A stretch of 64,000 bases of DNA from Alphaproteobacteria bacterium. GTDB lineage: Bacteria; Pseudomonadota; Alphaproteobacteria; UBA828. This document shows positions 5,797-55,807 of the stretch, one piece after another. The notes under the pieces were generated by a model that ran no database searches, had not been told where the DNA came from, and saw only the letters and a program-made list of their open reading frames with translations. The first letter of the stretch is position 1. Every line of letters begins with the position of its first letter. Made by a program: the position numbers and the translations under genes. The stretch covers positions 2,301,377 to 2,365,376 of the forward strand of contig OZ244839.1 in the NCBI GenBank assembly GCA_965220825.1. Reading direction: 5' to 3'.

Positions 5797-7311
5797 CTAG
5801 CTCTCGGCCAGCAGACGGGCTGTCAGGAGATTCGGGTCGAGCGGAATGTTCCGCAGAACAACGCCGACGGGACCGAGCGGTGGCAGGACCTTGCCGTCGA
5901 CACGCACCTCGAGAGCACCCGCATTGCCCGTCACCATGACAAGGCCCGGACGGTCGGGCACCCGGTAGATGTCACCCGGACGCAGGATGCGGGTCAACAG
6001 AAGTTCGTCGTCGGGCCCCTGCACCTGGACCCAGCTGTCGGCATAGGCCGCGATGACCACCCGGGCGGAGACGTTGCTGCGCCCGTAGACCTGCGGCACA
6101 TGGGCTTCGGCCTCGACCGCTGCGGGGGGCGCCGCGCCTGCATCGGCCGGGGCCGCTGCCTGCGGTTGCGCCTCGGGCGCGGCCGCGCTCTCCGTGGACG
6201 AAGGCGATGCCGGAACGCCGCTCTCGGGCAGCGTTTCGTAATCCAGCGCCGCTTCGATCGCGAGGTCCTGGGTGAAGGCTGCGACCTCGGGGGCCTCGAT
6301 CTCGGAGGCCGCCGGCGGGGTAGCGGCTTCGTTGCCGCCGACGGCTGCATCGGGCGCTCCGGCGGCAAGCGCGGCCTCCGCGCCATCGGCAGGGGCTGCG
6401 ACCGCAGCGGCGGCCGCACCGCTTTCGTCCCTGGCCGCCATATCGACGGTGGAAAGGGCCTCCGCCGGCTCAGGGGCCGCCGTCTCGACTGCCGCTTCGC
6501 GCGTTGCAGGCGGCGATGCGGACGCGACCGTTGATTCTGCTTCCGGCGCAACGAGTTCCTCCGGCGCAACGGCTGCCTCGTCCTCCGGCGGGACCGTTGC
6601 TTCCGGCGCAGAGATCGCCTCTGGCACCTCCGCAACCACTGTTTCCTCCGGTGCAACTGCAACGACTGCCTCCGGCGCGACGGTTGCCGCCGGTGCAACT
6701 GGAGCGACTGCCTCCGGCGCAACCGTTGCAGCCGGAGAGACGGTTGCCGCCGGTGTCGCGGTTTCGCCGGAGGCCGTTTCCTCGCCGCGTCCCACGGTCT
6801 CCGAGAAGCGGTCCGAAACGTCGGCGACCAGATCGGTCGCGACCCGCCCGTCGCTCTCGTAGTACTGCCAGCCGCCATAGGCGAGGCCGGCAAGAATAAG
6901 GGCTAACAGAACCAGCCAGGCCCGGGGCCTCCGGCCCTCTTTGCCGGGCGTTGGGAAGGAGAGATCGGCGCCGCCCGCTTCATGGTCCATCTCGCGTTTG
7001 AAGGCGTCCACCGTCTCCTGAATGTCGAGTTTGAGAAGGCCCGCATAGCTCCGCACGAAGCCCACCGCATAGGTCGCGCCCGGGAGCGCATCGAAGCGGC
7101 CCTCTTCCAACGCCGCCAAGTGGGACTCTTGAATGCGCAGCGTCTGGGCGGCATCGCGCAACTCGTAGCCGGCGCGGAGCCGCGCATCGTGCAGCGTACG
7201 GCACACATCGGGTACGGACCGGCGGTCGCCTTCCTCGACATCCGTCAATATCGGCTGCCCGGACCGAGCCGGCTCCACCGGCGCCCGCCGAAGGTCTCTC
7301 ATCGCTCGCAT
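5797..7311 (-). CDS. rodZ: RodZ-like cytoskeleton protein: N-terminal HTH, TM helix, long Ala/Pro/Glu/Val-rich linker, C-terminal DUF4115
   Basis: HTH segment DVCRTLHDARLRAGYELRDAAQTLRIQESHLAALEEGRF, TM segment WLVLLALILAGLAYGGW, DUF4115-like C-terminus. The exact start (M1 or M4) is uncertain. Confidence 0.65.
   Translation of the reverse strand: MRAMRDLRRAPVEPARSGQPILTDVEEGDRRSVPDVCRTLHDARLRAGYELRDAAQTLRIQESHLAALEEGRFDALPGATYAVGFVRSYAGLLKLDIQETVDAFKREMDHEAGGADLSFPTPGKEGRRPRAWLVLLALILAGLAYGGWQYYESDGRVATDLVADVSDRFSETVGRGEETASGETATPAATVSPAATVAPEAVAPVAPAATVAPEAVVAVAPEETVVAEVPEAISAPEATVPPEDEAAVAPEELVAPEAESTVASASPPATREAAVETAAPEPAEALSTVDMAARDESGAAAAAVAAPADGAEAALAAGAPDAAVGGNEAATPPAASEIEAPEVAAFTQDLAIEAALDYETLPESGVPASPSSTESAAAPEAQPQAAAPADAGAAPPAAVEAEAHVPQVYGRSNVSARVVIAAYADSWVQVQGPDDELLLTRILRPGDIYRVPDRPGLVMVTGNAGALEVRVDGKVLPPLGPVGVVLRNIPLDPNLLTARLLAES
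6290..6800. repeat. Degenerate short tandem repeats (12-18 bp units such as gcctccggcgcaac / ggttgccgccggtg) encoding the A/P/E/V-rich linker of the RodZ-like gene
   Basis: Visible reiterations in the DNA (ctccggcgca acggctgcctcg tcctccggcg ...) and in the protein (ATVAPEAVAPVAPAATVAPEAVVAVAPEE...). Confidence 0.6.
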
Positions 7312-13138: not shown

Positions 13139-15388
13139 ATGACCAAAATCGCGGGCTACGCGGATCGCGTCAGCGCGGCGCCCGGAGAAACCATCAGCTT
13201 CATGGTGAGCTCCGAGGCACCCTCCTACAAATGCGATATCGTTCGCATCATTTGCGGCGACGAGAACCCGAACGGGCCGGGCGTCAAGGAGCAGGTGGTC
13301 CGGACTCCGGCGAACGGAACCTACAAAGGCCGCAGGCAGGTCTGCTACGACGGCTCCTTCCTGGAGGTTCCGGCCCATCGGGCAATCCAGGGCCTGAAGA
13401 GCTTCACCTTCCAGGCCTTCATCTGGCCCACGACGCCGGATCGCGGCACCCAGGCGCTGATCGCCAACTGGCGCGACCGCGACAAGGCGGGCGCCGCCCT
13501 GATCATCACCAAGCAGAACGGCTCGCTCGCACTCTGTCTCGGCGACGGCAAGGGCAAGATCGAGGTCATCGCCACGAACCGGCCGCTGATCCCACACGAG
13601 TGGTACTTCGTCGCGGCGAGCTACGATGCGAAGTCGAAGCAGGTCGTCCTGGTGCAGCAGCCGCTCAAGGAATACCCCAAGGTGGCCCATGGCGGCATCG
13701 CGCGGAAGAAGTCCACGCTCAGAGCGCCCGGCAAGCACGATGCGCCCCTGACCATGGGGGCTTACTTCCGGCGCGTGGACAAGGGCCGCACCGTCTGCAA
13801 CGGGTTCTACAACGGGCGGATCGACAGCCCCCGAATCGCGAACCGGGCACTGAGCCTCGCCGAGATGGAACTCGCCAAGACGAGCCCCGGCGCCGAAGCG
13901 CTCGGCGATGCGATCGTCGGCGCCTGGGACTTCTCGCAAGGGATCACCACCACGCAAGCGGTGGACACCTCCCCCAACGGGCTCGACGGCAAGCTGGTCA
14001 ATCTGCCGACGCGGGCCGTCACCGGGTGGAACTGGGACGCCAGCGAGATGAACTGGCGGAACGCGCCGGAGCAATATGGCGCCATCCACTTCCATGAGGA
14101 CGATCTCTACGACGCCGGCTGGGAAGTGGATTTTTCCCTCACCGTGCCGAAGCGTCTGAAGAGCGGGGTCTATGCCGCACGCCTGCGGGGCGGCGGTTCG
14201 GAGGAGTACGTCCCCTTCGCCGTCCGCGCACCCCGCGGCGCTCCCACGGCGAAGATCTGCTTCCTGCTGCCGACCGCGAGCTATATGGCCTACGCCAACA
14301 CCAACATGGCGACCGATATCGGCGCGGCGCAGCTTCTCGCCGGCCGGCTCGCCGTCCTCAACGAGAAGAACCTGCAGCGCAACGCGCACCGGGAATATGG
14401 CACCTCGCTCTATGACAGCCATATCGACGGCAGCGGGATCTGCTATTCGTCGCGGCTCCGGCCCATCCTCAATTTCCGCCCGAAGGCACTGGAGTGGATC
14501 GGCGGGACGGAGTCCACCCTCTGGCAGTTCAATGCCGACACGCACCTCACCGACTGGCTCGAGGCGCGGGGCTTCGACTATGACGTGGTGACCGACGAGG
14601 ATCTCCACTATGAGGGCCTCTCGGCGATCCAGGACTACCGGGTTGTGCTCTCGGGCTCCCACCCCGAATACCATTCGAAGGCGATGTGGGACGCCATGGA
14701 CGCCTACCAGAAGCGCGGCGGGCGGCTGATGTATATGGGCGCCAACGGCTGGTACTGGCGCATCGCCTTCCACACCGAGGTGCCAGGCTGCATCGAGGTG
14801 CGCCGCGCCGAGGACGGAATCCGCACCTGGATTGCGCGCCCGGGCGAGTACTATCACAGCTTCACCGGCGAGTATGGCGGGCTCTGGCGGCGCAACGGCC
14901 GCCCGCCCCAGCTCATCACCGGCGCCGGCTTCACCGCCCAGGGCTTCGACATCTCGTCCTACTATGTGCGCCAGCCGGACAGCTTCAAAAAAGAGGTCGA
15001 CTGGATATTCAAGGGGATCGGAAAGGACGAGAAGATTGGCGATTTCGGACTGATCGGGGGCGGCGCTGCGGGTCTCGAGCTCGACCGCGCGGACCCGCTC
15101 CTCGGCACGCCGCCCAATGCCTATGTGCTGGCGAGTTCGGAGGGCCACACCGATCTCTATCTGGTGGTGTGCGAAGAGCTGGACGTGAACCGGCCCAATG
15201 CCGACGGCACCCAGGATCCGCTGGTCCGCGCCGACATCGTGTTCTACGAGACGGCGAACGGCGGAGCGGTGTTCTCCACCAGCTCCATCGCCTGGTGCGG
15301 GAGCCTCGCGCACAACAATTACAAAAACAACGTCTCCCGCATGACGGAAAACGTCCTGCGCCGCTTCGCCGACCCGAAACCCTTCTGA
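13139..15388 (+). CDS. N,N-dimethylformamidase large (beta) subunit-like protein: LamG-like jellyroll plus class-I glutamine-amidotransferase-like fold
   Basis: 749 aa. LamG motif TMGAYF...FYNGRIDSPRIANRALSLAEMELA. C-terminal DYRVVLSGSHPEYHSKAMWDAMDAYQKRGGRLMYMGANGWYW GATase1-like segment. The size matches DmfA2-family proteins. Start at the internal MTKIAGYADR, with RBS. Confidence 0.5.
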   Translation: MTKIAGYADRVSAAPGETISFMVSSEAPSYKCDIVRIICGDENPNGPGVKEQVVRTPANGTYKGRRQVCYDGSFLEVPAHRAIQGLKSFTFQAFIWPTTPDRGTQALIANWRDRDKAGAALIITKQNGSLALCLGDGKGKIEVIATNRPLIPHEWYFVAASYDAKSKQVVLVQQPLKEYPKVAHGGIARKKSTLRAPGKHDAPLTMGAYFRRVDKGRTVCNGFYNGRIDSPRIANRALSLAEMELAKTSPGAEALGDAIVGAWDFSQGITTTQAVDTSPNGLDGKLVNLPTRAVTGWNWDASEMNWRNAPEQYGAIHFHEDDLYDAGWEVDFSLTVPKRLKSGVYAARLRGGGSEEYVPFAVRAPRGAPTAKICFLLPTASYMAYANTNMATDIGAAQLLAGRLAVLNEKNLQRNAHREYGTSLYDSHIDGSGICYSSRLRPILNFRPKALEWIGGTESTLWQFNADTHLTDWLEARGFDYDVVTDEDLHYEGLSAIQDYRVVLSGSHPEYHSKAMWDAMDAYQKRGGRLMYMGANGWYWRIAFHTEVPGCIEVRRAEDGIRTWIARPGEYYHSFTGEYGGLWRRNGRPPQLITGAGFTAQGFDISSYYVRQPDSFKKEVDWIFKGIGKDEKIGDFGLIGGGAAGLELDRADPLLGTPPNAYVLASSEGHTDLYLVVCEELDVNRPNADGTQDPLVRADIVFYETANGGAVFSTSSIAWCGSLAHNNYKNNVSRMTENVLRRFADPKPF

Positions 15389-15403
15389 GCCGGGAGCTGC
15401 GCC

Positions 15404-16162
15404 ATGAGCAAGCCGACCGTTCTGATCACCGGCGCCGGCATCGGAATCGGTGAGGCCACGGCGCTCGCCTTCGCCGACGCGGGCTATCACGTCTACGTCA
15501 CCGACGTGCTCGACGAAGAGGGCCGGGAGACCGTCTCGGCCATCGAGGCGAAGGGCGGCAGTGCGAGCTTTACCCGTGTCGACGTGACCGACAGCGCCAA
15601 TGTGGACGCGGCCGTTGCCGCCGCCATTGCCGCCACGGGGCCGCTGGACGCGGTGGTCGCCAATGCGGGCATCGCCCACAAGGTGCCGCTGCCCGAAATG
15701 AGCGACGAAAAGTGGGACCACACGCTGGATGTGGACCTCAAGGGCGTGTTTCGCGTCTGCCGCGCGGCGGCGCCCGCCATGCGCGAAGCGAAGCGCGGCG
15801 CCATGGTGGCGGTCTCCTCGGTGATGGGGACGAGCTATGGCTGGCACGACCATGTGCAGTACAACGCCGCCAAGGCCGGTGTGGTCGGCCTGGTGCGGGG
15901 GCTCGCCTGCGACCTCGGCGGCGACGGTATCCGCGTCAACGGGATCGCGCCCGGCTTCATCAAGACGGCGCAGGCGCTTTCCACCGTGCACTCGGTGGGG
16001 CTCGCGGGGCTGGAGGCGGCGGCCGACTATATTCCGCTCGGCCGCTACGGCGAGGCGGAGGACATCGCCTCCGTCATCCTCTTCCTCTGTTCCGACGGCG
16101 CGCGCTATGTGAGCGGCCAGACGCTGATCGTGGACGGCGGCCTCACCGTCGGCCGCTATTGA
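15404..16162 (+). CDS. SDR family oxidoreductase
   Basis: TGAGIGIGEA Rossmann motif, NAGI, YNAAK catalytic motif. Confidence 0.85.
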   Translation: MSKPTVLITGAGIGIGEATALAFADAGYHVYVTDVLDEEGRETVSAIEAKGGSASFTRVDVTDSANVDAAVAAAIAATGPLDAVVANAGIAHKVPLPEMSDEKWDHTLDVDLKGVFRVCRAAAPAMREAKRGAMVAVSSVMGTSYGWHDHVQYNAAKAGVVGLVRGLACDLGGDGIRVNGIAPGFIKTAQALSTVHSVGLAGLEAAADYIPLGRYGEAEDIASVILFLCSDGARYVSGQTLIVDGGLTVGRY

Positions 16163-16183
16163 CGGCAGCCGCTACGCGGGCGC

Positions 16184-16795
16184 TCAGCGGCCGGCGTCCT
16201 CTCCCAGCACGGCGCGGCGGAAGCGGTCCTTCAGATAGGGGCCGTTGCGCGGCGGCAGTACCCGGGGCAGCGGCTCGGCCCTGACCTTCACGGCAAGGAA
16301 GGTGGGACCCGGCGCCTCGTGGACGAGCGCAAGCGCGCCCTCGAGCCCGGCTTCGTCGGCGACCGTCCGCGCCTCCCGGAAGCCCGCGGCCTCGGCGGCG
16401 CGGGCAAGGTCCGCGCCATAGGCCGTGTGGCTCGGCTGCATGCCCGTCTCGCCGTGGCGTTCATTGTCGAGGACCGCGATCGCGAGGTTCTCCGGCGCCT
16501 GGGTCGCGACGGTGGCGAGGCAGCCGAGGCCCATCAACATGTCGCCGTCTCCGGTGAGCACCACCACGCGCCGGGCGGGCTGCGCCAGCGCGAGGCCGAG
16601 CCCGATCATGGACGCATTGCCCATGGCGCCCCACAGCGAGAAGTGGCGCACATTGTCGCCGAGGGCGGCGCAGTCCCAGGTCGCGGAGCCGAGACCCGGG
16701 ATCACCAGCGTATCCTCCCGGCCTTCGAGCAGCATCGCCACCGCTTCGCGCCGGCCGAGCGTGGTGGCGGGTTGGCTTCGCGCCCGGGCGTTCAT
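16184..16795 (-). CDS. comE: Sulfopyruvate/phosphonopyruvate decarboxylase beta subunit (ComE-like, TPP-binding C-terminal domain)
   Basis: GDGDMLMGLGCLATVA...NLAIAVLDNERHGETGMQ TPP-binding GDG-x-N motif. ~203 aa. ATGA overlap with the alpha subunit gene. The ORF-track ORF at 16184..17077 is a spurious extension. Confidence 0.7.
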   Translation of the reverse strand: MNARARSQPATTLGRREAVAMLLEGREDTLVIPGLGSATWDCAALGDNVRHFSLWGAMGNASMIGLGLALAQPARRVVVLTGDGDMLMGLGCLATVATQAPENLAIAVLDNERHGETGMQPSHTAYGADLARAAEAAGFREARTVADEAGLEGALALVHEAPGPTFLAVKVRAEPLPRVLPPRNGPYLKDRFRRAVLGEDAGR

Positions 16796-17319
16796 CGCGT
16801 CTCGAAGCGTTTCGCGCCGATCACGCGCTGTCCGATCAGGACGGCGGCTGCGGCTTCGCTCTCGAAGGCGAGCGCGGCGGCCGCGGCGACGGTCTCGCCG
16901 GTGTCGGCCTCGTCGTCCACCCGCGAGACGATCACGCCGCATTGCGTGAGGTGCGCCGCGGCCCCCTGACCCATGGGAAGCTGCCAGGGATTGGTCTCGC
17001 CCCATTCGCCCCGCATGGTCACCAGGGCGAGAAACGGAAAGAGGCAGCTGCGGATCAGCGATAGAGCGGCGACGCAATTGCCGACGCCGCTCGACTGCAT
17101 CAGCAGCACCGCGCGCTCGCCGCCGAGCCAGGCGCCGGCGGCGAGCGCCGGGCCTTCCTGCTCATGGGCGAGGAGAACCGGGCGCATGGCGGGGTCGGCA
17201 TGGCAGAGCGCGAGCAGCCCGTCGAGACCCGCATCCGGCACATAGGCGACTTGCCGAACGCGGGCGTCCGCGAGCGCGCGATGGGCCTGCGCGCCCCAGC
17301 CGCACCGGGGAGCGCTCAC
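16792..17319 (-). CDS. comD: Sulfopyruvate/phosphonopyruvate decarboxylase alpha subunit (ComD-like, TPP pyrimidine-binding domain)
   Basis: VAYVPDAGLDGLLAL...LAHEQEGPALAAGAWLGGERAVLLMQSSGVGNCVAAL, typical of the TPP enzyme N-terminal domain. 175 aa. Confidence 0.7.
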   Translation of the reverse strand: MSAPRCGWGAQAHRALADARVRQVAYVPDAGLDGLLALCHADPAMRPVLLAHEQEGPALAAGAWLGGERAVLLMQSSGVGNCVAALSLIRSCLFPFLALVTMRGEWGETNPWQLPMGQGAAAHLTQCGVIVSRVDDEADTGETVAAAAALAFESEAAAAVLIGQRVIGAKRFETR

Positions 17320-17984
17320 GCGCCGGCGCTCGAAGCGTCGCCGGCGGCTTCCGCCGTCGCACCGCCCGCCCGCCCGGAGCCCGGGGCCATGCGGCAGAGC
17401 ATGGATAGCGTCCGGTCCAGGCGCCGGAGCCGGCGGTCGAGTGCCGCCATCGTGCTGGCCATGTCCGGGCTGTCGTCGCGCAGCCAGACGGGGAGGACGG
17501 AGAGATAGAGGGCGGCGAGCGCCTCCGCGCGGAACCGGCCGCGAAGGCCTGCGCTGCCGAGGCCCGCGGCTTCCAGCATCCAGCCCATGGAGCGGTGGAG
17601 CGCGAGCCGCCCGCAGACCAGCGCCGCCGGGTCCGGCGCGCCGCTTCGCAGGATCGCGCGAACCGCTTCCTTGTGTTCATTCAGCGCATCGAAACGCCGC
17701 ATCAGCACGTCGAAGAGGCGTTCCGGCGCCGGCCGTCCGGCCATCTCGGGATCGCGATCGGACAGCACCGTGCGGTCGATGCGTGCCGCGTACCCCGCCA
17801 GGATGGCGTTCCTCGAGGGGAAGAGGGCGCGGAGTTCGTCGAGAGAGAGTCCCGCCTCCTCGGCGATGTCGGCAAGGCTCACGCGCGACCAGCCCTCGCG
17901 CGCGGCGAGCGCCAGGGCGCCGTCGATGACGGTATCGCGGGGATCCGGCGGCGGTTTGGATTTGGGTGCCGCCTTCCTAGCCAT
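17316..17984 (-). CDS. TetR/AcrR family transcriptional regulator
   Basis: N-terminal HTH REGWSRVSLADIAEEAGLSLDELRALFPSRNAIL. The stop overlaps the comD start. Confidence 0.8.
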   Translation of the reverse strand: MARKAAPKSKPPPDPRDTVIDGALALAAREGWSRVSLADIAEEAGLSLDELRALFPSRNAILAGYAARIDRTVLSDRDPEMAGRPAPERLFDVLMRRFDALNEHKEAVRAILRSGAPDPAALVCGRLALHRSMGWMLEAAGLGSAGLRGRFRAEALAALYLSVLPVWLRDDSPDMASTMAALDRRLRRLDRTLSMLCRMAPGSGRAGGATAEAAGDASSAGA

Positions 17985-18051
17985 GATCCGATCCTCCCGC
18001 GTCGCCGCCGGTCAAGTCTAGGCCCGGCCGAAACCGCCGGTCAATCGCTTG

Positions 18052-18240
18052 TCCTCGTTCAGGACGTTTGCGACGCCGGGGTTTCTTCGGCCGTCAGGTT
18101 GGCAAGCTATTCGGCCGACCTTTGTCCGCAAACTGCCCCTTTTTGGTGCGCGGGTCTCCAGGCCCGCGCACCAAACTTGTCATTGGGGTCTCCCAACCTC
18201 GTTTCAAGAGCCGCGTCTCATAGCTGTCTGAACGTGCACA
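18052..18240 (+). mobile_element. IS-derived MITE-like repeat, copy 1 (shortened: the internal hairpin is collapsed to a 10-bp stem)
   Basis: Shares the left end tcctcgttcaggacgtttg(a/c)gacgc, the core ggtttcttcggccgtcaggttggcaagctattcggcc, the hairpin arm ggtgcgcgggtctccaggcccgc and the right end ccaacctcgtttcaagagccgcgtctcata(g/c)ctgtctgaac with copies at 19573-19868 and 55452-55784. Confidence 0.7.
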
Positions 18241-18258
18241 TCGTCCCGGGGCGGGCGG

Positions 18259-19482
18259 CTAGAGCGCTTCGCCGCGGGCGAGGCGGGGCTGGCGGCCCAG
18301 CACGCCCATGGCGTGGCGCATGAAGAGGCGCTTCAAGGGCGGGAGTTCGTTCACCGCCGCGAGGCTCAGGTCGCGGCCGGCGCGCAAGATGTCGCTCTCG
18401 TTCGAAAACAGGCGGTTCAGCCCGTCCGTGACGGCGACAAGCGCCGTGGAATCAAAGCGGCGCCGGCGCTGGTAGCGGGCGAGCAGGTCGTCCGCGCCGG
18501 GGTCGAGGCCGAGCCGCACATGGTCCACCACCAGTTCGGCGAGCTCGGCGACATCGCGGAGCCCCAGATTGAAACCCTGGCCGGCGATGGGGTGGATGGC
18601 GCGGGCCGCGTCCCCGATGAGCGCGAGGCGGGGCGCGGTAAAGCGGTGGGAAACGCTGAGCGCCAGCGGATAGCTCCAGCGCGGGCCGACCGGCTCCAGG
18701 GCGCCGAGAAAATCCCCGAAGCGCGTACCGAGCTCCTCTGCGAAACGCGCCTCGTCCGCCGCCATCATGATGGGCGCCACGTCCGCACGCTCGGTCCACA
18801 CCAGGGAAGAGCGATTGCCGCGCATGGGCAGGATGGCGAAGGGGCCCGCCGGCAGGAACCGCTCATGGGCGATACCCCGGTGCGGGCGCTCGTGGGCCAC
18901 GGCGCAGACGATGGCCGTCTGCCCGTAGGGCCGGCTCCACGCCTCGATTCCGGCGCCGGCGCGGAGCGCCGAATTGGCCCCGTCGGCGGCAATGGCGAGC
19001 CGCGCGGCGATACTGCGCCCGTCGGCGAGCCGGGCCTCGGTGCGCACCCCGCCGGGGACCAGCGCCGTCACGGAGGCGGGCGCAAGGTGGCGGAGTGCCG
19101 GCAGGTTTGCGGCGCGGTCCAAGAGGGCTGCGCGCAGGGCGCGGTTCTCGACAATGAAACCCAGAGGCCCGCCACCCACCAGCGCGCCGTCATAATGAAG
19201 GAAGAGCGGGGCCTCGCCGTCCGACACGCGGATTTCGAGGATGGGCTCCGCCTCCGCCTCGAGCGCCGGCCAGACTCCGAGGCCCGCCAGCACGCGCTGG
19301 GAGCCGAGGGCGATGGAGGAGACCCGCCCGTCGAACGCCGCGGCGCGCAGACGCTCCGGCGGATGGCCGTCCACGACCACCGTCTCGCACCCGGCGCCCG
19401 CAAGGGCCGTACCCATGGCAAGCCCCGCGAGCCCGCCACCCACGATGACGGCCTCCGCCTCGATCCGCGCCGCCTCCGCCAT
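18259..19482 (-). CDS. ubiH: FAD-dependent ubiquinone biosynthesis hydroxylase (UbiH/UbiF/VisC/Coq6 family)
   Basis: VIVGGGLAGLAMG dinucleotide-binding motif, DG motif, GDAARAIHPIAGQGFNLGLRD flavin monooxygenase fingerprint. Confidence 0.8.
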   Translation of the reverse strand: MAEAARIEAEAVIVGGGLAGLAMGTALAGAGCETVVVDGHPPERLRAAAFDGRVSSIALGSQRVLAGLGVWPALEAEAEPILEIRVSDGEAPLFLHYDGALVGGGPLGFIVENRALRAALLDRAANLPALRHLAPASVTALVPGGVRTEARLADGRSIAARLAIAADGANSALRAGAGIEAWSRPYGQTAIVCAVAHERPHRGIAHERFLPAGPFAILPMRGNRSSLVWTERADVAPIMMAADEARFAEELGTRFGDFLGALEPVGPRWSYPLALSVSHRFTAPRLALIGDAARAIHPIAGQGFNLGLRDVAELAELVVDHVRLGLDPGADDLLARYQRRRRFDSTALVAVTDGLNRLFSNESDILRAGRDLSLAAVNELPPLKRLFMRHAMGVLGRQPRLARGEAL

Positions 19483-19572
19483 GCCCGTACCGCTCCGCCG
19501 GCAACATCGCCGTAACGCCGCATGCTAGGGCGCTTATCCCGCCGTGAAAACCGCCGTGCCCGCAGATCGGTC

Positions 19573-19868
19573 GTGCAAGTTCAAACAGGTACGAGACGGG
19601 GCTCGTGAAACGGGTTTTGGGCTCTCCGAAGCTGTCGGTGGACACATCAACCGCTTCGGAGACCCCATGGTCGGTTTGGTGCGCGGGTCTCCAGGCCCGC
19701 ATGTTTTTGTTTTTCGAGAAGAAGAAAAATGCGGGCCTGGAGACCCGCGCACCAAAAAAAGGGGCAGCGCGTTGGGGCGACGCGCGACCGCCCATAACGC
19801 CGGCGGAATATTTTTCCAACCTGACGGCCGAAGAAACCTCAGCGTCTCAAATGTCCTGAACGAGGAGA
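19573..19868 (-). mobile_element. IS-derived MITE-like repeat, copy 2 (inverted relative to copies 1 and 3). Full 23-bp-arm hairpin at 19678-19753.
   Basis: The reverse complement matches copy 1/3 end to end. Hairpin ggtgcgcgggtctccaggcccgc-N30-gcgggcctggagacccgcgcacc. Flanked by the direct repeat (G)ATCGGT on both sides. Confidence 0.7.
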
Positions 19869-19958
19869 TCGGTTTGGAGGGCGGTGGCCGGGCGGCTACA
19901 CTCGGCGCGCCGGGAGCGGCTGCGGAGCTCCCGGCCTTGCGCGTGGAGAGGGTAGGCC

Positions 19959-20606
19959 ATGGCATCGGACATCGACATCTACAAGCACCAGAATTTCGGC
20001 AATCGGATCGGCTTCGGAGAGCGGCCGGCGCTTCTGATCGTAGACTTCGTCAACGGGTTCACCGATCCGAACAAGTTCGGCGGCGGCAACATCCAGGAGG
20101 CCATCGCGAAGACGGAGACCCTGCTCGCGGCCTGCCGGCAGCGGGGCGTCGCGGTCGCGCACACGCGCGTGATCTTCGCGGACGACGGCGCGGACGCCAA
20201 CGTGATGTGCCTCAAGGTGCCGGCGCTCACCACCCTCACCGAGGACGCGCCGGAGAGCCAGATCGTGGATCGCCTCGCGCCCCGCCCCGGCGAGATCGTG
20301 GTGCGCAAGCGCGTACCCTCCGCCTTCTTCGGGACGGACCTGGCGCCCGCCTTCGCCCTGCAGCGCATCGACACGGTGATGGTGGCGGGCTGCACCACCA
20401 GCGGCTGCGTGCGCGCCTCCGTGCTGGACGCCATGTGCCACGGCTTCCGCCCGGTTGTGGTGACCGACTGCGTCGGCGACCGGGCGCTCGGGCCGCATGA
20501 AGCCAACCTCTTCGACATGGGCCAGAAATACGCCGATCTCGCGACTTGCGACGAGGCCATCGCCGCGCTGCCGGCCCGCACGACGCCGGCGCAAGCCGCG
20601 GAATAG
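19959..20606 (+). CDS. Isochorismatase-family cysteine hydrolase (N-carbamoylsarcosine amidase/ureidoacrylate amidohydrolase-like)
   Basis: LLIVDFVNGF, catalytic Cys context VMVAGCTTSGCVRASVLDA, ~215 aa. Confidence 0.75.
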   Translation: MASDIDIYKHQNFGNRIGFGERPALLIVDFVNGFTDPNKFGGGNIQEAIAKTETLLAACRQRGVAVAHTRVIFADDGADANVMCLKVPALTTLTEDAPESQIVDRLAPRPGEIVVRKRVPSAFFGTDLAPAFALQRIDTVMVAGCTTSGCVRASVLDAMCHGFRPVVVTDCVGDRALGPHEANLFDMGQKYADLATCDEAIAALPARTTPAQAAE

Positions 20607-20617
20607 GGCGCGCCCCC

Positions 20618-21646
20618 GTGAAGGCCGTCCTGATCAGGGAGCATGGCGGCGTCGAGCGGCTCCGCCTGGAGGAGGTCGAGACGCCCGAGCCCGGCGAGGG
20701 CGAGGTGCTGGTGCGAATCCGGGCGAGCGGGATCAACCATCTGGACCACGACGTGCGCGAGGGCATCTCCGGCATTCCGGTCTCGCTTCCCCATGTGCCG
20801 GGCAGCGAAGGGGCGGGCGAGATCGCGGCGCTGGGGCCCGGGGTAAAGGGCCTGGAGGTGGGCATGCGGGTCGCCATCCACTTCGCCCAGGGGGATCCGC
20901 ACTCCGAGCCCTGGCTCAGCGGGCTGGACGGCGTGGACTTCACCCATGGGCGGATCGGCGCGAGCCGCTGGGGCACCCATGCGGAGTACACCGTCTCCGA
21001 CGCCCGCTCGGTGCTCCCGCTGCCCGAGGGCCTCCCGTTCGAGACCGCCGCCGCCGGCATGATCGGCTTCGGCACAGCTTGGCACATGACGGTGACTCTC
21101 GGCCGCGTGCAGGCGGGAGAGACGGTGCTGGTGAACGCGGCGGGCAGCGTGGTCGGCTCTTCGGCGATCCAGGTCGCCGTGCTCCACGGCGCCCGGGTGA
21201 TCGCAAGTGCGGGCTCGGCCGCCAAGCTCGAGAAGGCACGCGCCCTCGGCGCCGCCGACGTCATCGACTACACGCACCAGAACATTCGGGACGCGGCCCT
21301 GAGCATGACCGATGGGCGGGGCGTGGACCTCGTGATCGAGAGCGTGGGCGGCGAGGTGCTGCGCCAGAGCATCGACGCGGTCTGCTTCAACGGCCGCCTC
21401 GTCACCTGCGGCGCCCATGCCGGGGAGACGGTGCCGTTGAACGTCATCGAGCTCTTCCGCAAGCACATGACGATCCACGGCAGCCATCTGTGCGGCCGCC
21501 GGGAGCTCGCGCGCGTCTTTCAGCTCATGGCCGAGGGCGTGCTCACCCCGGCCATCCACAAGGTCTATCCCCTGGCGGACATCCAGGAGGCCGCGCGGCG
21601 CACCGCGAACCGGGACTTCTTCGGCAAGATGGTGCTGACGCCCTGA
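20618..21646 (+). CDS. Zinc-type alcohol dehydrogenase/quinone oxidoreductase (MDR family)
   Basis: MKAVLIREHGG...GEGEVLVRIRASGINHLD, Rossmann motif VLVNAAGSVVGSSAIQ. GTG start assumed at 20618. Confidence 0.8.
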   Translation: MKAVLIREHGGVERLRLEEVETPEPGEGEVLVRIRASGINHLDHDVREGISGIPVSLPHVPGSEGAGEIAALGPGVKGLEVGMRVAIHFAQGDPHSEPWLSGLDGVDFTHGRIGASRWGTHAEYTVSDARSVLPLPEGLPFETAAAGMIGFGTAWHMTVTLGRVQAGETVLVNAAGSVVGSSAIQVAVLHGARVIASAGSAAKLEKARALGAADVIDYTHQNIRDAALSMTDGRGVDLVIESVGGEVLRQSIDAVCFNGRLVTCGAHAGETVPLNVIELFRKHMTIHGSHLCGRRELARVFQLMAEGVLTPAIHKVYPLADIQEAARRTANRDFFGKMVLTP

Positions 21647-21655
21647 CGCAGCGGC

Positions 21656-23068
21656 TCAGCGCGCCGCGCCGGCCGTGCCGCGCTTGAGGAACCTGCCGCC
21701 GCCTTCCCTGCCGAGCCAGCGCTCGCCGTCCACGATCAGTTCGCCGCGCAGGAACACCTTGCGCACCCGGCCCGTGACCTCGCGGCCCTCGAAGAGCGAG
21801 TAGTCGATGCGGCTGTGGTGCTCGGCGGCGCGGATGGTCCAGACCTCCCGCGGGTCGAACAGCACGATGTCGGCGTCCGAGCCCACGGCGATGGTGCCCT
21901 TGCGCGGGAACAGGCCGAAAAGCTTTGCCGGTGCGGTGGCGGTGAGCTCCACATAGCGGTTGAGCGAGAGGGCGTTGTTGCGCACGCCGCCGTCATAGAC
22001 CAACGGCATGCGGGTCTCGAGCCCCGGCGCGCCGTTGGGAATCTTGCTGAAATCGTCCCGGCCCAGATCCTTGGAGAGGCGCAAGCCCAGCACGTTCTCG
22101 CTGAAGCAGAAGGGGCAATGGTCGGTCGCGATGACCTGGAGGTCGTCGGTCTTCAGGCCCCGCCAGAGGGCGTGCTGATGCGCCTTGCCACGGAGCGGCG
22201 GGGTCATGACGTATTTCGCGCCGTCGAAGCCCGGCCGGTCATATTCCTCGTCGGTGAGGAAGAGATAGTGCGGGCAGGTTTCGGCATGGACCGGCAGGCC
22301 CCGGTCCCGCGCTTCCGTCACCGCATCCAGCGCCTCGCCGGCGGAGAGATGCACCAGATAGACCGGCGCCTCGGCGAGTTCGGCGATACGGATCACCCTG
22401 TGGGTCGCCTCGCCCTCCATGATGGTCGGGCGGGTCAGCATATGCCATTTGGGGCTGGTGTTGCCGGCGGCGAGCGCTTCCCGCACCAGCACGTCGATGA
22501 CATGGCCGTTCTCCGCATGGACCTGGATCATGCCGCCCTCGGCGCCGGCAAGCCGCATGGCCTGGAAGATCGCCCCGTCGTCGATCATCAGCACGTCCGG
22601 ATAGGCGGTGAAGAGCTTGAAGGTGGAGACGCCCTCGTCCCGCATCAGGGTCTTCATGTCGGCGAGGGACTGCTCGTTCACGTCCGTCATGATCATGTGG
22701 GCGCCCATATCGACGGCCGCGACGGCGGCGCGTTCGTGCCAGTCCGCGAGGCCCGCGAGCGGGCTCTCGCCCTTCACCTGCGCGGCGAAGTCCACCACCG
22801 TGGTCGTGCCGCCGAAGGCCGCGGCCTTCGAGCCGGTATAGAAGGTGTCCGCGGTGCGGGCGGGGCCGAAATCCCAATCGAGATGGGTGTGCACGTCCAC
22901 GCCGCCGGGGAAGACCAGCAAGCCGGACGCGTCGTGGGTCTCCACATCCTCGCCGAGCGGCAGGTCGCGCCCGATCATGCGCACCCGGCCGTCTTCCATG
23001 AGGATATCGGCGGTGTAGTCGTCCACCGCCGTTACGATGCGCCCGTTCCGGATCGCCGTCGCCGCCAT
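21656..23068 (-). CDS. D-hydantoinase/dihydropyrimidinase (cyclic amidohydrolase)
   Basis: GGVDVHTHLD metal-binding motif, STFKLF carbamylated-Lys motif, 470 aa. Confidence 0.8.
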   Translation of the reverse strand: MAATAIRNGRIVTAVDDYTADILMEDGRVRMIGRDLPLGEDVETHDASGLLVFPGGVDVHTHLDWDFGPARTADTFYTGSKAAAFGGTTTVVDFAAQVKGESPLAGLADWHERAAVAAVDMGAHMIMTDVNEQSLADMKTLMRDEGVSTFKLFTAYPDVLMIDDGAIFQAMRLAGAEGGMIQVHAENGHVIDVLVREALAAGNTSPKWHMLTRPTIMEGEATHRVIRIAELAEAPVYLVHLSAGEALDAVTEARDRGLPVHAETCPHYLFLTDEEYDRPGFDGAKYVMTPPLRGKAHQHALWRGLKTDDLQVIATDHCPFCFSENVLGLRLSKDLGRDDFSKIPNGAPGLETRMPLVYDGGVRNNALSLNRYVELTATAPAKLFGLFPRKGTIAVGSDADIVLFDPREVWTIRAAEHHSRIDYSLFEGREVTGRVRKVFLRGELIVDGERWLGREGGGRFLKRGTAGAAR

Positions 23069-53284: not shown

Positions 53285-55380
53285 GGCGTACCGGCCTCCC
53301 TGACGTGAAGGTTGCCCGACCGGGCGACCGCCGCCTCGCAGCCCGGCGGCACCAAGGTGGTGGAATCGGTCTGGATCACGATGGCCGGGCCGTCGATGAA
53401 CTGGCCGGCGCGGAGTCTCCCGCGGTCGAAGCGGGGCGTCTCGCGCGCCTCTCCGTCGTCGAAGATCGTGGTGCGGCTGTAGAGCTCTGCATCGTCCGGA
53501 TTGCGGCCCTCGCTCGCGGGCGTCTCGGGCCAGCGCAGTGTGTCCATGGCAACGGTGGCCACGACGCGGAGCGTGATGATCTCCACATCCTGGTCCTCGA
53601 AGGCGTGGCCGTAGTCCTGGCGGTGCTGGGCGTGGAAGCTTGCCAGCAGCGCGTCGCGGTTCTCCAGGGTGAGCGGTCCCTCAGGCATGCCGCCCCGCAG
53701 TTCGAAGCCCTGCCCCCGATAGCGGCACTCCGCGACCTTGGCGATGCGCCGCGCCGCCGCGGGCACGCCGTCCGCAGCGAGCGCGTCCCGGGCCTCGCGC
53801 ACCAGCGCGTCCGTTTCCGCGTTTAGCATGTCGATCTCGTCCCGGGTCGCCTGGGTGAGCACGCAGAGCACCGAGCGCGTGAACTCGTAGCGCATGTCGG
53901 TGGCGAGGAGGCCGGTGGCGGCGTTGATGCCGGGTGCGGGCGGGACGATCACCTCGCGGGCGAAGACCGAGCGCGCGAGCGCCATGCCGTGCAGCGGGCC
54001 CGCGCCGCCGAAGGCCACCAGCGCGTAGTCCCGGGGATCGACGCCTTTGGCGACGGAGTTGGCGCGGATCGCGAGCGACATGTTGGAATCGATCACGCGT
54101 ATCGCGCCGAGCGCCGCCTCCTCGACGGACATGTTCAAGGGGCCGCAGAGCGTGTCCTCGATCGCCGCATGGGCCTTGGCCGGATCGATCTCGATGCCGA
54201 CGCCCGCGAACTGCTCCACATCGAGCCGGCCCAGCACGACCTGTGCATCGGTCACCGTGGCGTGCACGCCGCCCCGCCCGTAGCAGGCGGGCCCCGGCGC
54301 CGCACCGGCCGAGCGCGGGCCCACGCGGAAGGCGCCGCCCTCGTCGACATAGGCGATGGAGCCGCCGCCCGCGCCGATGGTGGCGAGATCGATCATGGGC
54401 GCGAGGATGGGATAGCCGCCCACCTGGGTGTCCCGCGGGTTCATGATGCGGACCTCGCCGTCGGGCACCACGCTGATGTCGGCGGAGGTACCGCCGATAT
54501 CCACGGTGATCAGGTTGCGCGTCTCCGCCATGTCGCCGGCCCACTTGCCCCCGATCACCCCGCCGGCGGGCCCGGACATGAGGATCGTCACCGGGCGCGC
54601 CGCCGCGCCTGCGAGGGTGGTGACGCCGCCATTGGACTGCATGACCCGGATCGGGGCGGAGACTCCGTTCTCGCGCAGCGCGGTGGCGAGGTTGTTCAGA
54701 TAGAAGGAGGCGCGCGGCCCGATGAAGGCGTTCATGGCCGCGGTCGAGAAGCGTTCATATTCGCGGATCACGTCCACCACCTCGAACGAGCAGCTCGCAT
54801 GCACGCCGGGCATGATGGACGTCACGATCTCCTTCGCGCGGCGCTCATGCGCGTCGTTGAGGAAGGAAAAGAGAAAGCAGACGACGACCGCGTCGACGTC
54901 CCGCGCCTTCAGAAGCTCCGCGGCGGCGGCCACCTCCGCCTCGTCGAGCGGCGTCTCCACCCGCCCGTCCGGCGGCAGGATGCGCTCGGTAATGGGGAGC
55001 CGGTTGCGCCGCTTGACCAGCGGGCGGGATTGCCAGGGCACGTCGAACTGGACCGAGAAGTTGTGCGGCCGCTTGTGACGCGCCATGTGCAGAATGTCGC
55101 GGAAGCCCCGGGTCGTGAGCATGCCCACCTCGGCGCCGGAATATTCGATCACCGTATTGGTGGCGACCGTGGTGCCGTGCACGATCTGCGTGACCGCGCC
55201 CGGCGAGATGCCGGCCTCCTCGCAGATCTCCAGCACCCCGCGGATCACCGCGCGCGATTGATCGTCGGGCGTGCTCGGCACCTTGTGGACGAAGACCCGC
55301 CCCGCGCCGTCGGCTTCGTCCCCAGGCTCCAGAATGAGGTCCGTGAACGTCCCTCCGACATCGACGCCAATTCTCGCCAT
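53281..55380 (-). CDS. hyuA: Hydantoinase A/oxoprolinase family protein (HyuA, set 2)
   Basis: MARIGVDVGGTFTDLIL, DIGGTSADISVV. 4-bp overlap with hyuB2. Confidence 0.85.
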   Translation of the reverse strand: MARIGVDVGGTFTDLILEPGDEADGAGRVFVHKVPSTPDDQSRAVIRGVLEICEEAGISPGAVTQIVHGTTVATNTVIEYSGAEVGMLTTRGFRDILHMARHKRPHNFSVQFDVPWQSRPLVKRRNRLPITERILPPDGRVETPLDEAEVAAAAELLKARDVDAVVVCFLFSFLNDAHERRAKEIVTSIMPGVHASCSFEVVDVIREYERFSTAAMNAFIGPRASFYLNNLATALRENGVSAPIRVMQSNGGVTTLAGAAARPVTILMSGPAGGVIGGKWAGDMAETRNLITVDIGGTSADISVVPDGEVRIMNPRDTQVGGYPILAPMIDLATIGAGGGSIAYVDEGGAFRVGPRSAGAAPGPACYGRGGVHATVTDAQVVLGRLDVEQFAGVGIEIDPAKAHAAIEDTLCGPLNMSVEEAALGAIRVIDSNMSLAIRANSVAKGVDPRDYALVAFGGAGPLHGMALARSVFAREVIVPPAPGINAATGLLATDMRYEFTRSVLCVLTQATRDEIDMLNAETDALVREARDALAADGVPAAARRIAKVAECRYRGQGFELRGGMPEGPLTLENRDALLASFHAQHRQDYGHAFEDQDVEIITLRVVATVAMDTLRWPETPASEGRNPDDAELYSRTTIFDDGEARETPRFDRGRLRAGQFIDGPAIVIQTDSTTLVPPGCEAAVARSGNLHVREAGTP

Positions 55381-55451
55381 GGCCGCTCCCGCAGGAAAAG
55401 ATTGCGCGCCGCGCCATCATATCGGCGGCGCCGGGCCAGGATAAGGGGCTG

Positions 55452-55784
55452 TCCTCGTTCAGGACGTTTGAGACGCTGGGTTTTTTTCGGCTGTCACGTT
55501 GGCAAGCTATTCGGCCGGGGTTTGTCCGCCAAGCGCCAGGTTGGGTCTGATGGTATTGAACGCGTCGGCGAAGGCGTCGCCCCAACGCGCTGCCCTTTTT
55601 TTCGGTGCGCGGGTCTCCAGGCTCGCATTTTTCTTCTCCTCGAAAACAAAAACATGCGGGCCTGGAGACCCGCGCACCAAACCAAAGATGATGGTTTTCT
55701 CGAGGTCGATGTGTCCACCAACCGCGCCGGAGACCCCCAACCTCGTTTCAAGAGCCGCGTCTCATACCTGTCTGAACTTGCGCA
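55452..55784 (+). mobile_element. IS-derived MITE-like repeat, copy 3 (most complete). Hairpin at 55604-55678. The transposase C-terminal tail remnant is readable on the minus strand.
   Basis: The minus-strand translation ends ...AFNTIRPNLALGGQTPAE*, the canonical tail of rve-type (IS3/IS481-like) transposases. TIR-like ends ctcgttcaggacgtttgagacgc / gcgtctcatacctgtctgaac. Confidence 0.7.
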
Positions 55785-55807
55785 GGGTAGGCGGGCAGGC
55801 GGGCCGT

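Follow-up and report, generated by a model that had tools for sequence, protein, structure and literature searches.

The intergenic segment at positions 55450 to 55784 of the window (the whole 64-kb stretch of DNA that was analyzed) is very probably a non-autonomous deletion derivative (MITE) of a 1120-bp IS481-like IS, and at least five copies of this derivative are present. The relation between MITE and IS is demonstrated by the homology of the ends and of the transposase tail, by an intact IS in the assembly, by a filler sequence common to the copies, and by 5-bp duplications. The repeat set of the window comprises three copies, referred to here as copies 1, 2, and 3, and the features are given below (IRL and IRR, left and right terminal inverted repeats; IS_L027, the full-length IS copy at locus L027).

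18050-18240, minus strand: MITE copy 1, 191 bp, consisting of IS 1-49, a collapsed hairpin, and IS 1038-1120.
19572-19868, plus strand: MITE copy 2, 297 bp, consisting of IS 1-96, the hairpin, IS 717-743, and IS 1048-1120.
19776-19802, plus strand: internal transposase-gene piece in copy 2, 27 nt, 25/27 identical to IS_L027 717-743, native reading WRRATAHNA.
55450-55784, minus strand: MITE copy 3, 335 bp, intergenic, oriented as the parental transposase gene, with the layout IRL plus 5'UTR remnant, acquired hairpin, and transposase gene 3' end with IRR.
55785-55789: flank of copy 3 on the IRL side, GGGTA.
55693-55784, minus strand: left part of copy 3, the left terminal inverted repeat and the parental 5' untranslated leader, IS 1-94, 83/94 identical (88.3%) to IS_L027.
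55604-55678: central long hairpin of copy 3, with arms at 55604-55628 and 55654-55678 and no match in the parental IS.
55450-55587, minus strand: right part of copy 3, a relic of the last 42 transposase codons with the TGA stop and the right terminal inverted repeat, IS 983-1120.
55507-55509, minus strand: premature TAG, the stop seen in the preliminary description; C to G at IS position 1063, parental TAC (Tyr) to TAG.
55459-55461, minus strand: ancestral transposase stop TGA inside the terminal inverted repeat, bases identical to those of the intact IS.
55445-55449: flank of copy 3 on the IRR side, GGGGC.

The structure of copy 3 was deduced from its alignment with IS_L027, in which IS 1-94 matched 55784-55693 and IS 983-1120 matched 55587-55450. 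The right-hand alignment was gapless over 138 nt (124/138 identical, 89.9%; E 3.5e-49), and its last base is the terminal base of the IS. Within the terminal repeats, 31 of 33 positions of the IRL matched IS_L027, and the final 29 nt of the IRR were identical. IS 95-982 is absent from copy 3, and an unrelated 75-nt hairpin is found in its place. The preliminary description had located the repeat correctly, except that its left edge was 2 nt short (55450, not 55452). Its view of the repeats as non-autonomous deletion derivatives keeping both ends was borne out by the alignment of IS termini that it had proposed, as both ends match the IRL and IRR of the full-length IS. The tail is not confined to copy 3, since copy 1 keeps IS 1038-1120 and copy 2 keeps IS 1048-1120. 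In copy 2, the 27-nt internal piece is joined to the tail via a 7-nt microhomology. The MITEs range from 191 to 335 bp, and of the 337 transposase codons 42 are left in copy 3, broken by the TAG. Two further hairpin-carrying copies, L011 and L027:2735-2898, were found in the ENA assembly ERZ26695461. Identity is 76-89% among the MITE copies and 84-92% between the MITE copies and the IS. Elsewhere in the window, a tandem pair of 42-nt units (79% identical) was noted at 6627-6710, probably within a coding region.

The coding relic in copy 3 was first recognized as a minus-strand peptide, and this is present as described: 55510-55587 reads RWGDAFADAFNTIRPNLALGGQTPAE, followed by TAG. The minus-strand open reading frame at 55507-55740 (77 aa) ends in ...KKRAARWGDAFADAFNTIRPNLALGGQTPAE, again followed by the TAG. 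When a 30-aa peptide alone was compared with Pfam rve_3, it matched the last 21 positions of the profile (47-67 of 67) with an E value of 0.022 and 14.9 bits, against a gathering score of 26.5. As this score is below gathering, the original recognition was right but could not be proven from the peptide alone. A word-indexed protein search with a 49-aa tail returned no candidates; this was a false negative, as an index-free HMMER scan covering 1.84 billion protein representatives then gave two informative matches, P0002 and P0003. P0002 is a spurious ORF spanning a further copy of the repeat. P0003, a fragment of 123 aa, shows 76% identity to the peptide of copy 3 and matches rve_3 with an E value of 5e-12 (profile positions 4-67). 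Its homology extends past the stop of copy 3, with YLAKHAAEEPPPSHRS in P0003 corresponding to the stop and following LANVTAEKNPASQTS in copy 3. With P0003 as the query, mostly 113-aa fragments containing only rve_3 were found. A decayed, nearly complete element at another locus (L013) allowed the reconstruction of a 317-aa protein with the Pfam domains HTH_32, rve, and rve_3, for which the best NCBIfam match was IS481 (E 1.5e-49, 169 bits, versus 86 bits for IS3) and which had 2383 homologues, most of 335-345 aa. When this reconstructed relative was compared with the whole window by tblastn, the single significant match was the tail of copy 3 (42 aa, 62% identity, E 1.4e-10, with the TAG read through).

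Among full-length transposases, P0032 comes closest, with 81% identity to the 42-aa tail of copy 3, and the two have the unusual motifs TIRPN and ASQTS in common. The translation of copy 3, RWGDAFADAFNTIRPNLALGGQTPAE, stop, LANVTAEKNPASQTS, is matched by the IS tail RWIDAFADEFNTIRPNQALGGQTPAEYLDNLTAEETTASQTS. The tail is thus a genuine C terminus of an rve-type transposase, as supported by both P0003 and the full-length P0032; of the two families originally named for it, IS3 and IS481, the parent is IS481-like and not IS3. The stop had been taken for the end of the transposase. The TAG is present, but the homology continues for 16 codons beyond it, and copy 2 retains TAT (Tyr) at the corresponding codon. 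By this comparison, the TAG is a secondary Tyr-to-stop mutation, and the ancestral ORF was 16 codons longer, running to the TGA in the terminal repeat. Copy 2 had also been said to keep a shortened tail. It reads RWGDARPPITPAEYF, of which TPAEYF... is indeed the tail, while DARPPIT is the out-of-frame piece of IS 717-743. A transposase tail is readable in copy 3 because this copy retains the longest piece of the gene 3' end (42 codons). The 14 substitutions in this tail are spread 4/5/5 over the codon positions and include 9 amino acid changes and one nonsense change, which indicates neutral decay; the tail is a decaying pseudogene fragment and not a functional peptide. The 77-aa ORF at 55507-55740 was considered as a real gene and rejected, as it crosses the hairpin, has only the spurious call P0002 as a relative, and includes the neutrally decaying tail.

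Other searches for relatives were largely negative. When the left terminal repeat was used as an exact pattern of 22 specified bases, no copies were found in GTDB species genomes or JGI metagenomes, and blastn of the element against PLSDB plasmids gave nothing. The repeat family is rare in public data. The possibility that the element is an RNA gene was rejected, as Rfam gave only sub-threshold matches of the microRNA and snaR type, which are caused by the long hairpin. A different explanation is that the peptide is a coincidental product of a G+C-rich repeat and the element a REP- or terminator-type intergenic sequence unrelated to any IS. The sub-gathering E value of 0.022, the dominance of a hairpin with terminator-like arms, and the lack of other copies in exact-pattern scans of public genomes and metagenomes would each be compatible with coincidence. 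Coincidence, however, leaves unexplained the two gapless alignments (138 and 94 nt) that end exactly at the IS termini, a tail that is 81% identical including the 16 codons past the stop, and the retention of nested parts of the same tail in copies 1 and 2, and it can practically be dismissed.

Derivation from an IS is supported further by the parental element itself. No full-length IS or transposase gene was found by tblastn within the 64-kb window. P0032, a protein of 337 aa with the Pfam domains HTH_23/HTH_32, rve, and rve_3, is encoded on contig_47 of ERZ26695461. The ubiH-like protein of the window is found on contig_9 of that assembly, and 7224 nt of contig_9 align with window 15260-22482 at 99.986% identity; this match implies that ERZ26695461 represents the organism of the window. 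Because contig_47 belongs to that assembly and is similar in G+C content, and because the hairpin MITE was found nowhere else, we infer that this contig is from the same organism. The expectation that a parental-type IS exists elsewhere in the genome proved correct: the assembly carries four 1120-bp IS copies (L027-L030) that are 99.7-99.8% identical and encode an intact 337-aa transposase, and the 5-bp duplications are perfect in three of the four (CGTCC, GCATT, and CTTCG). Members of the transposase cluster were likewise located on an NCBI/ENA contig of 3.28 Mb, on which the exact P0002 sequence is found. A sister IS of 1139 bp is present in another genome as four identical copies with 5-bp duplications, so that over both ISs perfect duplications are seen in 7/8 full-length copies. 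A second, more distant transposase of this clade (P0042, 335 aa, 63% identical to the reconstructed query) is recorded on the 3,279,725-nt contig that also carries the parental IS, and the genome may hold two related IS481-like lineages.

The parental IS consists of the IRL (TGTGCAAGTTCAGACAGGTATGAGACGC...), a leader of ~97 nt, a single 337-aa HTH+DDE (rve) ORF at IS 98-1111, and the IRR (...CGTCTCAAACGTCCTGAACGAGGACA). Its ends read TGTGCAAG...GAGGACA, and the TGA stop, which ends at 1111 of 1120, is part of the right terminal repeat. Members of the IS481 family, as described in ISfinder, are ~1-1.3 kb long, with TGT...ACA ends and short target duplications. The parent resembles this family, including IS481 of Bordetella pertussis, in its size (1120-1139 bp), its single ORF for a 337-343-aa HTH+rve DDE transposase, its TGT...ACA termini, its short (5-bp) duplications, and its best NCBIfam match, which covers nearly the full model. 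P0032 scored 174 bits against the IS481 model NF033577 (E 4e-51, model 11-283 of 284), below the curated cut-off of 224, and this score sets the parent apart as a divergent branch. The IS3 family has the rve-type DDE core, the TG...CA ends, and the C-terminal motif ...RPHxALGxxTPxE in common with the parent. It differs in that the IS3-type organization of two ORFs with a -1 frameshift is absent from the parent, which has a single ORF, and in that the score of P0032 against the IS3 model NF033516 (90 bits, cut-off 160) is about half the IS481 score. On best match and architecture, and with a score below the curated cut-off, the parental IS is thus assigned as probably IS481-like, from a divergent branch, and not IS3.

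Truncated relatives of the IS were observed in related genomes, in which 113-aa rve_3-only ORFs are numerous and represent 5'-truncated IS copies (L012:3467-4351 and 6649-7100; L014:3803-4351). A 549-nt truncation was seen with an identical breakpoint in two genomes. It lies immediately behind the IRR of a hairpin-less mini element in one of them and abuts an apparent CRISPR array beside cas genes in the other. At L012, an asparagine synthase gene lies between two truncated copies that are inverted relative to each other.

No counterpart of the central hairpin was found in the parental IS by alignment. The whole element folds with a z-score of -5, the 25-bp stem being dominant, and the exact 19-nt arms occur five times in the window, all within the three copies. 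Terminator-like matches were found on both strands (55609-55626, plus; 55673-55656, minus), each arm forming with its adjoining T-run a terminator-like stem-loop, one per strand and convergent. The most economical guess from this predicted structure is that the hairpin may act as a bidirectional terminator. The same non-IS hairpin is present in copies 1, 2, and 3, in L011, and in L027:2735-2898, all at unrelated loci, and it is therefore deduced that a single deletion derivative arose once and then spread. The ancestor would have lost IS ~95-982 and gained the unrelated palindromic module at that position, and the derivative would then have spread to unrelated intergenic sites, presumably with transposase supplied in trans by full-length copies. 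Mobilization in trans is plausible, and we infer it together with the order of the deletion events and any present-day mobility.

A history in which full-length ISs decayed in place by independent internal deletions, leaving solo relics that were never mobilized as small elements, was weighed against this. Such decay would fit the varying internal content (191, 297, and 335 bp in copies 1, 2, and 3, with the extra IS piece in copy 2), the imperfect duplications of copies 1 and 3, and the differently truncated related IS copies in other genomes. It is nevertheless very improbable, because independent deletions would not gain the same filler: the same non-IS hairpin replaces the deleted region in all five copies, the sequence joining the hairpin to the IS 3' part is common to copies 2 and 3 and L011, and the differences between the copies correspond to nested secondary deletions of one ancestor. 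The spread of a single derivative remains the preferred reading.

Scans with the 19-nt arm gave 9 genome and 5 metagenome matches, of which only three (L001, L005, and L006) extend to 29-38 nt. These are single arms (GGTGCGCGGGTCTCCAGGCCCGC and then a T-rich run) in intergenic regions of Alphaproteobacteria MAGs (L001:2532-2566, L005:5772-5806, and L006:2862-2898), with neither IS-like flanks nor an Rfam match at these loci. Arms of this type are a possible source of the foreign module of the MITE.

The flanks of the copies were also compared. The tips are TG...CA in copies 1 and 3, and both terminal dinucleotides are mutated in copy 2 (CG...GA). The target duplication of copy 2 is perfect (TCGGT/TCGGT), and copy 1 has the flanks TCGCT/TCGTC, 3/5 matching. 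The flanks of copy 3, GGGGC and GGGTA, are probably a degraded 5-bp target duplication, likewise 3/5 matching; a duplication of 3-4 bp at a 2-nt offset was dropped in favor of 5 bp once the intact IS copies had defined the termini. With 76-89% identity among the MITE copies and >99.7% among the IS copies, the MITEs long predate the present IS burst, and an earlier relative of the present IS may have been their direct parent. The near identity of its copies suggests that the IS has been active recently.

Several composite arrangements were observed. Head-to-tail junctions, in which an older or mini element ends in its IRR and, after 5 nt, a full-length IS begins with its IRL, occur at L027:2735-4023, L019:1374-1400, and L017:1377-1410. 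The L027 junction consists of a hairpin MITE, TCTGC, and an IS, and the outer flanks of the pair, CAGAC and CAGCC, match at 4/5 positions, as if MITE and IS had moved as one unit. At L017, the duplication belonging to the IS itself starts 5 nt beyond an IRR remnant. In the window, a ubiH-like FAD monooxygenase gene (18259-19482, minus strand) lies between copies 1 and 2, which are inverted relative to each other and point their IRR ends away from the gene, and the outer flanks of the pair, TCGCT and TCGGT, are 4/5 matching. This could be either a composite-transposon-like arrangement or two independent promoter-proximal insertions.

The sequence adjoining the IRR was compared across 16 independent insertion sites of this IS/MITE lineage; the loci covered are the window copies, L012-L020, and L027-L030. 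Immediately after the 5-bp duplication, T was found in 15/16 sites and TTG (+6 to +8) in 11/16, versus 0.84% expected, and a TAnnnT-like hexamer often followed after another 17-18 nt. A further three sites, from the genome of the window itself, fit this pattern, with TTG in 2/3. The IRR faces the start of the next gene in most cases. The IRR flanks of the window copies are as follows.

17985-18049: copy 1, TTGACC-N18-TAGACT, before a TetR gene.
19869-19958: copy 2, TTGGAG-N17-TACACT, before an isochorismatase-like gene.
55380-55449: copy 3, TTATCC-N17-TATGAT, before a hydantoinase gene.

The sequence pattern is strong and raises the possibility, judged somewhat doubtful, that the lineage and its MITEs insert in a fixed orientation, with exactly one 5-bp duplication separating them from a downstream sigma-70-type -35 hexamer (TTGAC), in which case the MITE would shield core promoters. 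Candidates for the recognized feature are the promoter, the bare TTGAC motif, or an IRL-like end. IS481 itself targets NCTAGN, and the target of the parent differs from this, being N5 followed by a TTGAC-like motif. No description of TTGAC targeting was found in the literature.

The same promoter-proximal location could instead mean that the element has been kept for a host function, as a mobile bidirectional terminator or insulator upstream of promoters, with the transposase tail incidental. In keeping with this, the hairpin arms are terminator-like on opposite strands, in all three window copies a -35-like hexamer lies 5 bp beyond the IRR, with TAnnnT 17-18 nt on, and faces a gene start, and the arms are perfectly conserved (5/5) while the remainder has diverged. 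The full-length IS copies, however, are also promoter-proximal, which points to target choice and not to selection on the MITE, and the conservation of the arms can also arise by self-correction of a palindrome. Retention for such a role is judged unlikely, although somewhat less so than the other alternatives; it does not compete with the MITE origin and would only add a function to it.

A MITE from an IS481-like IS with an autonomous partner in the genome is a well-known kind of bacterial element, and nothing specific on IS481-derived MITEs was found in the literature. A described case is MiniMdi3 of Methylobacterium, a MITE related to ISMdi3 and derived from a resident IS by internal deletion (PMC2680597); in the same source, ISMex2 of Methylobacterium extorquens AM1 is listed in the IS481 family. 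The present element resembles MITEs of this kind in being small, multicopy, and intergenic, without a transposase gene, and with termini matching an autonomous IS in the same genome. It differs in the acquired 75-nt palindromic module, the 42-codon tail relic, and the age of its copies (76-89% identity).

For annotation, the origin of the repeats settles that the three intergenic repeats are IS481-like relics and neither genes nor RNA genes, and that the 77-aa ORF should not be called. Tying the repeats to an intact and recently active IS is also of use in predicting rearrangement hot spots, for example at the inverted copies around the ubiH-like gene. The family provides a clean case of the birth of a MITE, combining internal deletion with the capture of foreign sequence. 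If confirmed, a preference for sites immediately upstream of -35-like TTGAC motifs would be an unusual and useful form of target specificity, and the hairpin MITE would then set a two-way terminator before intact core promoters, shielding them from upstream transcription.
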